Shown here piece after piece: positions 18,352-24,836 of a stretch of DNA of 32,000 nt. Position 1 is the stretch's first letter; each line of letters begins with the position of its first letter. A program made the translations under genes and the position numbers. The notes beneath the pieces were generated by a model, which ran no database searches, was not told where the DNA came from, and saw only the letters and a program-made list of their open reading frames with translations. Source of the stretch: Candidatus Heimdallarchaeota archaeon (GTDB lineage: Archaea > Asgardarchaeota > Heimdallarchaeia > JABLTI01); NCBI GenBank assembly GCA_030614005.1, contig JAUWKS010000036.1:1-32000 (forward strand), given 5' to 3'.

Positions 18352-19209
18352 CTAAATTGCAGATAAAATTAATACTACAATAACTAAAATGAGACTAACT
18401 AAAGAAACACCTAATGAAATAAATAAGATAATTCTTTGGAGCCTAAATTCTTTCATCCATCTCATACGAAATTTATTGAAATCATCTTTGTTGATGACAG
18501 TTTTGTTCATCTCTTCAAGAGCAGAACTTAGTGATTCAAGGTCAGAACGAGTTTTTGCCAAACTTTTCTTGTGAACTTTATCTGCTTCAACAAACTCTTT
18601 TTTGGTGAGTAATGTTTTATTTGCAAGAGTTTCTAAAGATTGATTTACAGATAATGCCATCCTCATAGCAGTATTTTCAGCTATTTTCTCAGCACTTTCA
18701 TGATCTTGAACATGGCTCGTTAACAAATCAATAATTTCATTTGGATTGGTCATTATTTTAAATGGCACTTCAAATGATTTGCCGTCAAATCCAACTCTAA
18801 AGAATTTAGCTTTGTAATCCTTTTGATCCCGACTTTTAGCAAAAGCGTTGCCATCATTAACCATTGCAACAGCTTCTGGTAGCAATGCTTGATAGATTTG
18901 TTGAGTAGCAATATCTGTACCTGACATGAATACAGACATGCCTGGGTGTGTATGGTACCAACCTAAAATGACTTCTCCTTTTCCTCTCTCTTCTAATCGC
19001 TCTAGTATTTTAAATTGCATCATGTTATCAAATGAAACAAAAGTAGGATTTGATTCAGCTACTGCAAAAACTGCTTCAGTTATCAGAAGTTTTTCTTTCA
19101 TTATTTTACCGATAAGATATCCACCTATTTCTCTTTCTGTATTTGTTGCAGTCCAATCAATTATCTTTGCATATGCTAACGGAGAAATCTCTACAGTAAT
19201 TTTAGTCAT
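18352..19209 (-). CDS. JAB1/MPN+ (JAMM) metallo-isopeptidase with coiled coil and C-terminal TM helix
   Basis: REIGGYLIG (catalytic Glu) and GWYHTHPGMSVFMSGTD (H-x-H-x7-S-x2-D). ISPLA..KI and TQQIYQ..AVAMV resemble Rpn11/CSN5. C-terminus IILFISLGVSLVSLILVIVVLILSAI-stop. Confidence 0.9.
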   Translation of the reverse strand: MTKITVEISPLAYAKIIDWTATNTEREIGGYLIGKIMKEKLLITEAVFAVAESNPTFVSFDNMMQFKILERLEERGKGEVILGWYHTHPGMSVFMSGTDIATQQIYQALLPEAVAMVNDGNAFAKSRDQKDYKAKFFRVGFDGKSFEVPFKIMTNPNEIIDLLTSHVQDHESAEKIAENTAMRMALSVNQSLETLANKTLLTKKEFVEADKVHKKSLAKTRSDLESLSSALEEMNKTVINKDDFNKFRMRWMKEFRLQRIILFISLGVSLVSLILVIVVLILSAI

Positions 19210-20503: not shown

Positions 20504-20615
20504 TGGTAATCGGATGACATTATATGAAAATTCAATTAAATCTTTTCTCATTTATTAATTGAAATTTGTGCATCTTATTACAAAAATGAAAGAAAAAAAG
20601 ATAGAGATATGGAAA

Positions 20616-21854
20616 TCAAACATATATTTTACATCGATAGCAGTACCAGCGATTGTATTGTTTGATAAATGATAATTTGCTTCCACATTTTGGGCAATGC
20701 CCTTTTCGCTTCTTCTTTTTTGATTCCGATTTAACTTCTTTGGGTTGCTGTACTTTTTCCTTTACAGGTTCTAGCTCTGGTTCAGTTTCACTTAAAATTT
20801 CAGTAATGCTTTCTTCGTCATTATTTCCTTCAATAATGTGCATTGTATCGAGCTTTGATCTGTCAATAGTTTCATAGCTAGCATTCGCATCTGGTTGTGT
20901 TTGTGAATCGAAATCATCCATAGGAGGGACAGGAATCATTAAATCTAATTCAGCTGAAATGTCATCTACTGGTTGACTATAAGCTTCTGTTGAGTCAACT
21001 ACAGTTAACATTTCTTTGTCAATAGATTCAATTTTGTCTTTCAAAGAAGTGATTTCCTGATTTGTACTATCTATCTGAAATTTCTTTGTTTCAACAACTA
21101 ACATTCGTTCCTCTAATGCTGTCATAATTTCAGATAAACTGCTAATTTTCTCATTCAGCATGCTTAATGTTGAAATGAGCTGATTCATATGTTCTTTTTG
21201 TGGGACATCTGTTTCAATTTTTGGGGGCATAGGCAAGGGTTTTACTGTGAATGGTCGAGAATTATTATCTAATTCTTCACCGTCAGCCCTAGCCCCATTA
21301 CGAGGGAAACCTTCTTTTTCCAGAAACATTTTTCCCATCATATTGAAAGCTTCGCTGATATTTTCTCCAGTCAAAGCTGACGTATGCAGATAAGTAGCAT
21401 CGATGCCTTTCATTTTCTTAATCTTCCCAAGGAGTTTATCAATATCTTCTTGTTTCACTTTTATTTTATCAGTAAGATCATGTTTGTTCCCTAGGATAAT
21501 AAAAATCTTCAAAAAGCCCCCTGAATGCTCAACTGCCTCTTCTACCCATTGGTCAAGTTTTTCTAGTGTTTCCGGTGAAGTGAGGTCACATACTAGGAAT
21601 CCACATTTGCATCCACTATAGAATGATGAGCGAACATGTTTGTACATTGCTTGACCAGCAAGGTCCCATATTTGGAAGTGAACTTTGTTTTCACCTAGAA
21701 CTATTGCTTTTGATGCAAAATCTGCACCAATGGTCTTAATGTATTCACTCTTAAATCCAACGCCCATAAACTGGGATCGAATGCTTGTTTTTCCTACTGA
21801 ACCTTCACCCATTAGAACAATTTTGAACACGAATTCACGTTTTATTTCTGACAA
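20616..21854 (-). CDS. Rab-like Ras-superfamily small GTPase with long C-terminal extension (coiled coil, acidic linker, Zn ribbon)
   Basis: G1 GEGSVGKT, G2 YIKTIGADF, G3 WDLAGQ, G4 NKHD, G5 TSALTG. Heptad region about aa 225-290; KKKKRK-GHCPKC..WYCYRC at the C-terminus. Confidence 0.92.
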   Translation of the reverse strand: MSEIKREFVFKIVLMGEGSVGKTSIRSQFMGVGFKSEYIKTIGADFASKAIVLGENKVHFQIWDLAGQAMYKHVRSSFYSGCKCGFLVCDLTSPETLEKLDQWVEEAVEHSGGFLKIFIILGNKHDLTDKIKVKQEDIDKLLGKIKKMKGIDATYLHTSALTGENISEAFNMMGKMFLEKEGFPRNGARADGEELDNNSRPFTVKPLPMPPKIETDVPQKEHMNQLISTLSMLNEKISSLSEIMTALEERMLVVETKKFQIDSTNQEITSLKDKIESIDKEMLTVVDSTEAYSQPVDDISAELDLMIPVPPMDDFDSQTQPDANASYETIDRSKLDTMHIIEGNNDEESITEILSETEPELEPVKEKVQQPKEVKSESKKKKRKGHCPKCGSKLSFIKQYNRWYCYRCKIYV

Positions 21855-22089: not shown

Positions 22090-22935
22090 TTGTTTAGACG
22101 GCAATCTCCTAAAAAGAAGGATACCACTCTCTGGTCTGAATACCCGGATTATAATCCAATAAATAATGTCGAAGAGAAACCACTCTATGATGAAGCACGT
22201 GTAACTGATGAACATCGTGTTCTTGGTCAAATCATTCGAGAGAATTGGAATCTTGTTCATCCACTTGCAAGAGACTATATGTTATCTGCTGCTGCTGAAT
22301 GGCGAAAGTTTATTATTGAACACGAAATGACCCCAACGGGTTCAAGTGATCAAAATGAAGTTATTGATATTATGAAGCAAGATTTTGAAACAAAAATGCA
22401 AAGAATTCTGTTGGAGAAAGATGCAGAGATTGAAAAAATAAAAATGGACATTGCTGAGAGTTTCAAAGAAGAATTAGAACGAAAGGATGAAGAATTCGAA
22501 AATTATAAAATGATGGCTGAATCTGTCCGAACAAATTTTGATGATACCAAAATTTCTCAATCAAATCTTCAGAGTGATCTTTCAGCTCGTGACAATCGTA
22601 TTGCTGTTTTAGAGAAATTAGTTGAAGATTTGCGCGATCAATGCAAATCAAAGGAAATTGAGGCAATGAATGTTCAAACAGGTATTAGTAAGAATTTTCA
22701 ACAACAAATCAGTGAAATGACTACTGAGTTATATAATCGTCAAGAGCAAATAGAGAAATTACGTGGAGTGCTTTCTAAAGCTAAAGATCAACTTGTTCAT
22801 TTGAAAGAAAAGAATGGCGAGTATATCCTATCCAGGAAGCAATTGGATGCACGCATAGAGTCTTTGGAACGTATGGTTAACGAAAGAGATCATAAGCTCA
22901 AACAAGTTGTAAAATCAATTGAAAATTTAGAATAA
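22090..22935 (+). CDS. Long coiled-coil protein with an N-terminal globular segment
   Basis: About 190 aa of E/K/Q/L-rich heptads after an approximately 85-aa non-coiled N-terminus. TTG start with GGAG 9 nt upstream. Confidence 0.8.
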   Translation: MFRRQSPKKKDTTLWSEYPDYNPINNVEEKPLYDEARVTDEHRVLGQIIRENWNLVHPLARDYMLSAAAEWRKFIIEHEMTPTGSSDQNEVIDIMKQDFETKMQRILLEKDAEIEKIKMDIAESFKEELERKDEEFENYKMMAESVRTNFDDTKISQSNLQSDLSARDNRIAVLEKLVEDLRDQCKSKEIEAMNVQTGISKNFQQQISEMTTELYNRQEQIEKLRGVLSKAKDQLVHLKEKNGEYILSRKQLDARIESLERMVNERDHKLKQVVKSIENLE

Positions 22936-23890: not shown

Positions 23891-24083
23891 CTATTTTACC
23901 TTTTGGAAATCACTTTTGAGAGCTTCACTATACACTAATTTAATCTTTAGATGATGGAGCTTTTTTTACTTTTCTTCGTTTTTATTAACTGCCTATTTAC
24001 AAAGGTTTTAATTGGTTTTTGTCATATATTTCTATATAAATTATATAGTTAAGACATACATTAGTAGTAGGAGCAAAACAAAT

Positions 24084-24836
24084 TTGGGTTACTTTAAAGG
24101 TCTCTTTACGTCATTAGGAATTGCATTACCAAGCTTTCTCTTCATTCATATATATCTTCAAGAAATGTGGTTACCAAACTTTTTCACCGATTTAGTTGGA
24201 GGAAACTGGGAACTACTGCTTCAAGTTTGTGAGACTACAATCTTAGAACCTATTACCATATTTTTCGTTGCTCCAGAAGTGTTGAGAATTTTATTTGCAT
24301 TTGTACCTTGGGTAGTTGCCGCTTTCGTAGCTAGTTTCTTCTTCCGTAAGAAACATGCCGCGAGATTAGGATTAGCGACTACAATTTCATTATTCTTTAT
24401 TGCGGAGCTAGTTTATTATCTAATAATACAAAATACAGTATTAACGGTTGACACTTTAACACTACCAAATCCTTTGTATGGCTTTCTTGTCATTCAAGCA
24501 ACAGTAACTATAGTTGGATTGCTAGCAGGGTTGATTAGTCCCTTTAAAAAGGAAGCTAGCTTAGATTATAAACCTCCTCCTGCTTCACAGAGCAGAAGAC
24601 CATCTAGACCTTCTGATCCAACTCCATTGGTTACACATGAACCAGTTGATTTTGATAGTCCCATTTACATGCCAGATGAAAGCCCAAGTAGGGATGAATA
24701 CATTGAAAGGCATCACACTCCTGTGAGTCAAAGACCATCCTCTGCCCAAGCTCCTTGTGAATACTGTGGATCGTTCTTGGACCCTGATACAGAATTTTGC
24801 AGTGTTTGTGGAAATCGAGCTTCAGGTGAATATTAA
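24084..24836 (+). CDS. Membrane protein (about 4 TM) with Pro/Ser-rich tail and C-terminal zinc ribbon
   Basis: Hydrophobic segments, PPPASQSRRPSRPSDPTP linker, CEYC..CSVC. TTG at 24084 (AGGAG 10 nt upstream) preferred over track start 24012. Confidence 0.78.
   Translation: MGYFKGLFTSLGIALPSFLFIHIYLQEMWLPNFFTDLVGGNWELLLQVCETTILEPITIFFVAPEVLRILFAFVPWVVAAFVASFFFRKKHAARLGLATTISLFFIAELVYYLIIQNTVLTVDTLTLPNPLYGFLVIQATVTIVGLLAGLISPFKKEASLDYKPPPASQSRRPSRPSDPTPLVTHEPVDFDSPIYMPDESPSRDEYIERHHTPVSQRPSSAQAPCEYCGSFLDPDTEFCSVCGNRASGEY

Follow-up and report, generated by a model that had tools for sequence, protein, structure and literature searches.

How is a Rab-like GTPase placed within a cell if its chain offers no site for a lipid anchor? 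This question is raised by a gene at positions 20616-21854 (minus strand) of a stretch of DNA from a Candidatus Heimdallarchaeota archaeon. The whole stretch that we analyzed, 32,000 nucleotides (contig JAUWKS010000036.1 of assembly GCA_030614005.1, positions 1 to 32,000), is referred to below as the window. Translation of the window gives an open reading frame of 412 codons that begins with TTG and encodes a protein of 412 amino acids (aa). An initial inspection of the letters by themselves, here called the sequence-only reading, had described the product as a Rab-like GTPase with a coiled coil, an acidic linker, a polybasic patch and a zinc ribbon in place of a prenylation site.

We found that this architecture (Rab-like G domain, heptad helix, acidic linker, basic patch and C4 zinc ribbon) holds, far beyond chance, because a search with the tail alone returned 41 homologs, 23 of the 23 that were aligned show the same plan, and conservation is strong region by region. 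It is known already that many Asgard Rab-like GTPases are without prenylation signals and that multidomain layouts, shuffled in lineage-specific ways, are common among the "eukaryotic signature" proteins of Asgard archaea. The architecture is not a surprise in kind. It is a clean experimental handle on an open question.

Architecture and conservation of the GTPase

The tail used in the search was residues 185-412. The 41 proteins that it found are 228-449 aa long, and the records of 37 of them list a Ras-family domain. Their labels are mostly Heimdall or Asgard, and the NCBI name of the orthologs is "Rab family GTPase". Each of the 12 genomes searched from one Heimdallarchaeial family (f1) has a single ortholog, with a G domain that is 78-96% identical. 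No G-domain match outside f1 exceeded 49% identity, and in a phylum-wide sample of 200 Asgard genomes (~190 of them non-f1) the tail turned up in f1 only.

The two ends of the protein are conserved and the middle is not. Among 20 full-length orthologs, mean pairwise identity was 82% in the G domain, 38% in the linker that follows it, 42% in the heptad helix, 37% in the acidic tether, 27% in the stretch before the ribbon, and 90% in the ribbon. The zinc ribbon is the most constrained part of the protein. A ribbon at 90% and a G domain at 82%, against 27-42% for everything between them, is the pattern that two functional ends joined by a spacer would leave.

The first end is a Rab-like G domain (residues 1-184; 21303..21854, minus strand). 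The sequence-only reading had all five G motifs intact, with the Rab-type sequences IGADF and WDLAGQ, and each can be read in the translation: G1 is GEGSVGKT (16-23), G2 is T41 within YIKTIGADF, G3 is WDLAGQ (63-68), G4 is NKHD (123-126) and G5 is TSAL (158-161). All are invariant or nearly so in an alignment of 116 sequences. In Pfam the domain matched Ras (4e-37, 127.7 bits) ahead of Roc (1.6e-24, 86.9 bits) and Arf (4.8e-12, 46.1 bits). In a phmmer search of PDB sequences, the top match was the Thorarchaeota Rab 7ezb (1.4e-28, over residues 6-180), and the remaining 59 of the best 60 matches were all Rabs or Ypt proteins. In the better of two AlphaFold models (described below) the domain has a predicted local distance difference test score (pLDDT) above 90, and a Foldseek search with that model gave only Rabs among the matches listed, to rank 49, with target TM-scores (template modelling scores) of 0.77-0.87.

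Identity to eukaryotic Rabs (Rab8, Rab1, Rab4, Rab7, Rab11, Ypt1 and Ypt6) was 29-35%. The nearest sequences in a large protein collection were Asgard "Rab family GTPases", 40-47% identical, from Heimdall, Hodarchaeales, Kariarchaeaceae, Odin, Gerd and Promethearchaeota. A home for the G domain in Roc/COR or another non-Rab clade had been named as the outcome that would overturn the sequence-only reading, but the PDB and Foldseek matches listed were all Rabs. We rejected membership in Roc/COR, as the COR domain was absent in Pfam at E values up to 1 and the Roc score was below the Ras score. Against the RabF1-F5 consensus attributed to Pereira-Leal and Seabra (2000), the segments IGADF, HFQIW and LVCDLT presumably resemble RabF1, F2 and F5, and YKHVRSSF and FYSGC correspond only partly to F3 and F4. 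The proper label for this G domain would be "Rab-like" and not "Rab", because the tree that we built (36 G domains; see below) holds Asgard proteins only, with no eukaryotic sequences. Motifs and matches together identify the protein, as far as sequence can, as a GTP-binding switch and place it with the Rab-like proteins of Asgard archaea.

Beyond the G domain the chain runs on for about 228 residues, in agreement with the ~230 extra residues counted earlier. The first of them form a Pro-rich linker (residues 185-218; 21201..21302, minus strand) that includes PLPMPP, has 6 Pro in 34 residues, and is probably flexible, as its pLDDT is low. Next is a heptad helix of the coiled-coil type (residues 219-292; 20979..21200, minus strand) with the conserved core ALEER(M/L). 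It has two in-register heptad stretches, 220-255 and 258-285. An AlphaFold run on 23 near-identical orthologs had a mean pLDDT of 55.6 and was replaced by a run on 116 sequences; in this better model residues 220-292 are a single 73-residue helix with pLDDT of about 77-95. A long lone helix in a monomer model is how a coiled-coil segment would look without its partner, and the helix is thus a candidate for pairing.

The acidic tether, predicted to be disordered, occupies residues 293-372 (20739..20978, minus strand), as judged by charge, alignment and low model confidence. Residues 291-372 contain 21 D/E and 5 K/R, so both the coiled coil and the acidic linker of the sequence-only reading were recovered. 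The net charge of the tether is -13 to -30 across 23 orthologs. In the ortholog alignment three short motifs are conserved within it: IPVP (307-310, with P310 invariant), IDRSxLxxM (330-338) and EESITEIL (347-354). The AlphaFold model predicts short helices at 333-337 and 348-355.

The chain ends with a basic patch (residues 373-386; 20697..20738, minus strand) and the C4 zinc ribbon (residues 387-412; 20619..20696, minus strand). The order is KKKKRK, then GH, then the ribbon, which has the pattern CxxC-x14-CxxC and pLDDT of 91-95. Seven K/R lie within residues 373-385. The 26 residues of the ribbon have a net charge of +6, six aromatic residues and no acidic residue. An ESM Atlas search with the tail found no match. 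The protein ends in CKIYV, with no C-terminal CaaX, CC or CxC. It is without a prenylatable terminus because its last Cys, at position -5, serves as a zinc ligand. The replacement of the CaaX, CC or CxC end by a zinc ribbon, proposed at the outset, is therefore what the C-terminus holds: by its sequence, the predicted ribbon stands where eukaryotic Rabs carry the prenylation end and its lipid anchor.

The basic patch and the ribbon behave differently among orthologs. The 15 residues before the ribbon have a net charge of +6 here and from -6 to +7 across the 23 orthologs, and a run of six K/R before the ribbon is found only in the three closest sequences. We therefore treat the patch as lineage-specific and rejected it as a feature of the family. 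In the sequence-only reading the patch contributed to lipid-independent binding; because it is absent from most orthologs, it cannot be the mechanism of the family, and that part of the proposal falls. The charge of the ribbon itself is +4 to +6 in the orthologs, all but one at +5 or +6, and its basic residues are nearly invariant.

The machinery that would prenylate a Rab also appears to be missing. None of the 120 best short homologs has a prenyl-type Cys terminus. In this genome (90% complete), GDI/REP (PF00996) had no match. The only match to PPTA (PF01239) was below cut-off and in a TPR protein, and we rejected it as a prenyltransferase for that reason. There is one partial, borderline match to the alpha-alpha toroid family PF00432, covering profile positions 22-113 of 304. 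It lies in a 536-aa protein (L112:371-1981, minus strand, contig C85) and scored 28.4 bits against a cut-off of 26.5; none of 14 control genomes had a match. We do not find this protein, judged by its sequence, convincing as a protein prenyltransferase. The lack of GDI/REP and of a convincing prenyltransferase agrees with the work of Tran et al. 2024 (PMC10933270), in which Asgard Rabs were without a prenylatable Cys and REP and RabGGTase were not found.

Comparison with known Rabs shows what is shared and what is added. The Thorarchaeota Rab (7EZB/7EZD/7EZE; PMC10933270), the best PDB match, has the same Rab-like fold and also no prenylatable Cys. However, it consists of nothing but a 182-residue G domain whose C-terminus is truncated, whereas the GTPase described here adds 228 residues containing helix, acidic tether and ribbon. 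Eukaryotic Rabs share G1-G5, the switch sequences IGADF and WDLAGQ, and the fold, but they end in a hypervariable tail with CC, CxC or CaaX; the protein described here has no such tail, and its genome no GDI/REP.

The large Rabs (CRACR2A/Rab46, Rab44 and Rab45/RASEF) also combine a Rab-type G domain with a coiled coil at far above the standard Rab length. In these proteins the EF-hand and coiled-coil extension is N-terminal and the C-terminal prenylation site is kept. In contrast, the G domain here starts at residue 10, the extension is C-terminal, no EF-hand was detected in Pfam, and there is no prenyl site. We rejected membership in the large Rabs on these grounds, and the likeness to Rab44/RASEF that the sequence-only reading had drawn is an analogy of size only.

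The zinc ribbon as a mobile archaeal module

The ribbon is not specific to this GTPase. No Pfam or NCBIfam model matched it at cut-off; the only matches were sub-threshold, to IS1595, S27a and Zn_ribbon_6. FYVE, C1 and PH were not matched in Pfam at E values up to 1. A scan with a regular expression and a profile found the same flavour of ribbon on seven proteins of the genome, including two long Rab-like proteins. The second of these is a 552-aa Rab-like GTPase (L010; contig C63:3668-5338, minus strand) that also has the helix, acidic tether and ribbon.

The other carriers are of three kinds. One is a 728-aa FG-GAP propeller protein with the ribbon in mid-chain. Another is a polytopic membrane protein without a Pfam family (L003:214-1590, plus strand, contig C17), in which a Pro/Ser/Ala-rich cytoplasmic tail ends in the ribbon. 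The remaining three (L005:943-1626, minus strand; L006:1471-2271, plus strand; L009:1-777, plus strand) are 228-267 aa long and have an N-terminal ribbon before a body that may be LOR/scramblase-like; this assignment comes from sub-threshold Pfam matches and ESM Atlas scores of 0.85-0.89, which are leads only. One of these three proteins has KKKKRP right before its ribbon. The set of ribbon architectures, compared by frame length, recurs in 11 of 11 other f1 genomes, and other families of the class gave weak matches only.

A hint in support of the docking role proposed below comes from the surroundings of one carrier. A gene for a 174-aa protein (L004:922-1446, minus strand) lies 46 nucleotides after the gene for the 552-aa paralog, and its product matches Fuz_longin_1 exactly at the cut-off (E 1.1e-5). 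This Pfam family covers the longin domain that comes first in MON1, FUZ and HPS1, all of them subunits of exchange factors for Rabs. The N-terminal motif of this protein is common to the tail of the FG-GAP propeller-ribbon protein (BLASTP 4e-8), and both the propeller and the shared longin-type motif in that protein were confirmed. A GTPase and a possible regulator thus carry the same ribbon.

The module extends well beyond this genome. The sequence-only reading had suggested a profile search for proteins that share the ribbon. When a profile of the seven ribbons was run against 1.84 billion representative proteins, 1143 clusters matched at E <=0.001, and the module is pan-archaeal. The top matches contain 2-9 tandem copies separated by acidic or Pro-rich linkers. 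The top 150 proteins hold 473 modules, of which 446 are exactly 25 residues long. The consensus is CPxCG-x3-L-x-[YFW]-[IV]-x-Q-Y-x-R-[WY]-Y-C-x2-C-x2-Y, and the ribbon of the GTPase fits it.

Additional carriers came from this search. The C-terminal tail of an MMPL/RND-type transporter has tandem copies of the module, and a single copy lies at the end of an 1850-aa S8 protease with CARDB domains (P0072 and P0176); proteins with SAP and HEPN domains carry it too. A search with a three-ribbon protein placed the module in named genomes that are mostly Bathyarchaeia, with others from Brockarchaeota, Methanobacteriota and Nitrososphaerota. From this distribution, the ribbon is best described as a widespread, uncurated archaeal module and not as an Asgard or eukaryote-like part. 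The papers searched describe neither an Asgard Rab-like GTPase that carries a zinc ribbon nor the ribbon module; the zinc ribbons mentioned in an ESCRT survey and in the asCOG preprint are different ones.

Candidate roles for the tethered ribbon

We think there is a somewhat better than even chance that the ribbon on its tether is a docking or address module, with a protein as its partner more likely than a lipid. The heptad helix would pair two chains, either two copies of the GTPase or the GTPase and a paralog. The tether, ~95 residues, would let the ribbon reach its docking site. There the ribbon would act as an address, binding a fixed partner and placing the GTPase without a lipid anchor. 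The partner would most likely be a protein; for this especially basic ribbon it could possibly be an acidic surface or anionic lipid. As the module is present on six further proteins of the genome, the ribbon may gather the switch, membrane proteins and a possible regulator at a common site. For regulators or effectors, the tether offers its three conserved short motifs as candidate binding sites.

Several observations favour a protein partner. Some carriers of the module are membrane proteins in any case, a basic charge is not a general trait of the module family, and the conserved positions of the module are aromatic and not charged. In addition, there is an archaeal precedent. In CdpC of Haloferax volcanii, a C-terminal C4 ribbon that follows a disordered linker of 243 residues binds FtsZ1 directly, and Cys mutants lose this binding (bioRxiv 10.64898/2026.07.16.738847). 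The likeness drawn here is one of layout: both proteins are archaeal, and in both a long disordered linker ends in a C-terminal C4 ribbon that, in CdpC, docks on a protein. Unlike the GTPase, CdpC has no G domain. Also, CdpC-like proteins are reported to be absent from Thermoproteota (bioRxiv 10.64898/2026.07.16.738847), whereas the module described here is common in Bathyarchaeia. A weaker idea about the partner comes from the sequences around the modules. Pro-rich segments flank many of them, the invariant P310 of the GTPase included, and the aromatic face of the ribbon might bind such segments.

It is also possible that the ribbon anchors the protein to the membrane directly, through a basic and aromatic surface (here together with KKKKRK) that binds anionic archaeal lipids, with dimerization through the helix adding avidity. 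The composition of this ribbon, +6 with six aromatics and no acidic residue in 26 residues, is consistent with such a role, as are its standing as the most basic when set against 473 related modules, the near invariance of its basic residues among orthologs, and the membrane-related nature of other carriers (the LOR/scramblase-like proteins and the polytopic membrane protein). There are known proteins in which a dimeric coiled coil with a zinc finger, or a basic tail, makes contact with a membrane: EEA1 is a dimeric coiled coil that ends in a FYVE finger, and Rit and K-Ras4B have polybasic tails. However, the GTPase has no FYVE signature in Pfam, its polybasic patch is not conserved, and it has no farnesyl group.

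The module family argues against a lipid anchor as well. Across the 473 modules the net charge has a median of +1 and a range of -8 to +5, so the family is near neutral and the GTPase ribbon lies beyond its range. The module occurs on proteins that are already embedded in the membrane, the polybasic patch is missing from most orthologs, FYVE, PH and C1 signatures are absent in Pfam, and a long acidic tether beside the ribbon would oppose binding to anionic lipids. We consider direct anchoring unlikely. The sequence-only reading had offered membrane or partner binding by the zinc ribbon as alternatives; the membrane half becomes less likely with a module of median charge +1 that sits on integral membrane proteins, and the partner half fits better.

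Positive charge would equally suit nucleic acid. Among solved structures, the ribbons of eS31 (S27a/S27ae) come nearest in sequence to the ribbon profile, at E 0.007-0.014, with matching CPKCG and YxRxYCxKC spacing; this likeness is suggestive and not significant. The ribbon might then bind RNA or the ribosome, in which case the GTPase would have its place with the translation apparatus instead of a membrane. Weak matches to Pfam Ribosomal_S27 and NCBIfam S27ae point the same way, and some sources label relatives S27AE. Nevertheless, every eS31/S27 match is below its curated cut-off, the context differs from that of eS31, and these matches do not establish homology. The G domain belongs with Rabs and not with translation GTPases, the remaining carriers in this genome are proteins of membrane or trafficking type, and the module is generally near neutral or acidic. 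Based on these results, a role in binding RNA or the ribosome seems quite unlikely.

The charges on the chain suggest yet another role. With a ribbon of +6 and a tether of -13 to -30, the tail might be mainly regulatory, the basic ribbon folding back onto the acidic tether, onto one of its conserved short motifs or onto the G domain, and so gating the nucleotide state or access of effectors. The conservation of three short motifs in an otherwise fast-evolving tether would be explained, and no other part of the protein is as well conserved as the G domain and the ribbon. In contrast, both AlphaFold models report order only in the G domain, the helix and the ribbon, with low confidence in the tether, and the same module is present on proteins without any G domain, so its basic function is not specific to GTPases. 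We regard this possibility as quite unlikely.

The preferred reading, docking on a protein partner, has points against it. It is a proposal made from sequence, and it names no particular partner. Outside the Cys and aromatic positions, the genome's seven ribbons are only 19-50% identical to the ribbon of the GTPase, so a single shared partner is not implied. At +6, the ribbon is above all 473 modules (maximum +5), which would fit binding of lipid or RNA at least equally. Pairing through the helix is a matter on which AlphaFold monomer models say nothing. The neighbours of the gene (DUF362/4Fe-4S, coiled-coil and radical SAM) point to no pathway, and the gene order is kept only in close relatives.

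A bolder version of docking is doubtful and we give it low probability: the ribbon could be a shared address label that gathers two Rab-like switches, a scaffold for a longin-type regulator, and LOR/scramblase-like and polytopic proteins at one membrane site. If true, this would be a means of giving a patch of membrane its identity without lipid anchors, assembled from an archaeal module and not passed on to eukaryotes.

Gene context, origin and meaning of the architecture

The gene itself is well defined. We take the TTG start as correct because orthologs have ATG at the same aligned position, and their N-terminus reads MS(D/E)IKREF. An AGGAG sequence is located 13 nucleotides upstream of the start. 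The stop codon is followed within 40 nucleotides by runs of T7 and T5 (20575..20618, minus strand) that are likely an archaeal terminator, and because of these runs the gene is probably transcribed alone.

The entire neighbourhood is syntenic across six f1 loci. This synteny is found only among close relatives and therefore reflects kinship and gives no functional link; for this reason, and because of the T-runs after the stop codon, we rejected a functional operon with the neighbours. These encode a DUF362/4Fe-4S protein, a 281-aa coiled-coil protein, a radical-SAM protein, a JAB/MPN protein with a membrane anchor, a HEAT-repeat protein, and housekeeping proteins. The coiled-coil gene (22090-22935, plus strand) is divergent from the GTPase gene and adjoins it in 6 of the 6 f1 loci examined. 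Its product has an N-terminal domain of ~90 residues and a long coiled coil, and no Pfam family matched it. Two genes from the GTPase, a 285-aa protein (18352-19209, minus strand) has a eukaryote-type JAB1/MPN domain (PF01398, 1.5e-17) with an intact HxH...S..D metal motif, followed by a coiled-coil stretch and a C-terminal transmembrane helix; by sequence it is a predicted membrane-anchored JAMM peptidase. A 274-aa membrane protein (24012-24836, plus strand) has a Pro/Ser-rich tail that ends in a different, shorter ribbon, CxxC-x10-CxxC, of the Zn_ribbon_3 type.

The closest relatives of the GTPase indicate how its architecture arose. In three other Heimdall families (f2, f4 and f6) these relatives are 242-311 aa long; a G domain of the same type is followed by a linker and a single heptad helix, and the chain ends at or shortly after that helix. 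The terminal helix aligns with residues 220-255 of the GTPase (for example, IEERLNTIQ with ALEERMLVV). Within f1 there are three paralogs: the 412-aa GTPase, a form of 552-586 aa that keeps this plan but has a longer tether, and a form of 270-281 aa with the helix only. In this genome the third paralog is a 277-aa protein with the helix and without the ribbon (L104:279-1109, minus strand, contig C81), and it is also present in other f1 genomes.

In a maximum-likelihood tree of the 36 G domains, the helix-tailed proteins form one clade (support 100/99) apart from 13 short Asgard Rab-likes. The branching order of the three f1 paralogs was not resolved. A 467-aa Rab-like GTPase from a further family (L103:259-1659, minus strand; genome G031, family f5), with a long helical tail of tandem LSDKVKEIDV-type repeats, has a very long branch in the tree. 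Because relatives in other families end at the helix and all helix-tailed proteins form one clade, the "G domain plus heptad helix" is the older unit, and the acidic tether and ribbon are an addition at the level of the family, gained once or twice. Two of the three f1 paralogs were lengthened in this way.

Asgard genomes contain dozens of Rab-, Arf- and Rag-like switches, and their Rab-like switches are without the lipid anchors and escort proteins of eukaryotic Rabs (PMC10933270). A tethered ribbon of 26 residues is a conserved candidate for a device that positions such a switch, and the six further ribbon proteins in the genome are a short list for experiments on switch positioning. A "G domain plus heptad helix" GTPase found across Heimdall was extended in f1 by a module that is common in other archaea. 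This extension is lineage-specific domain shuffling and not eukaryote-like inheritance.

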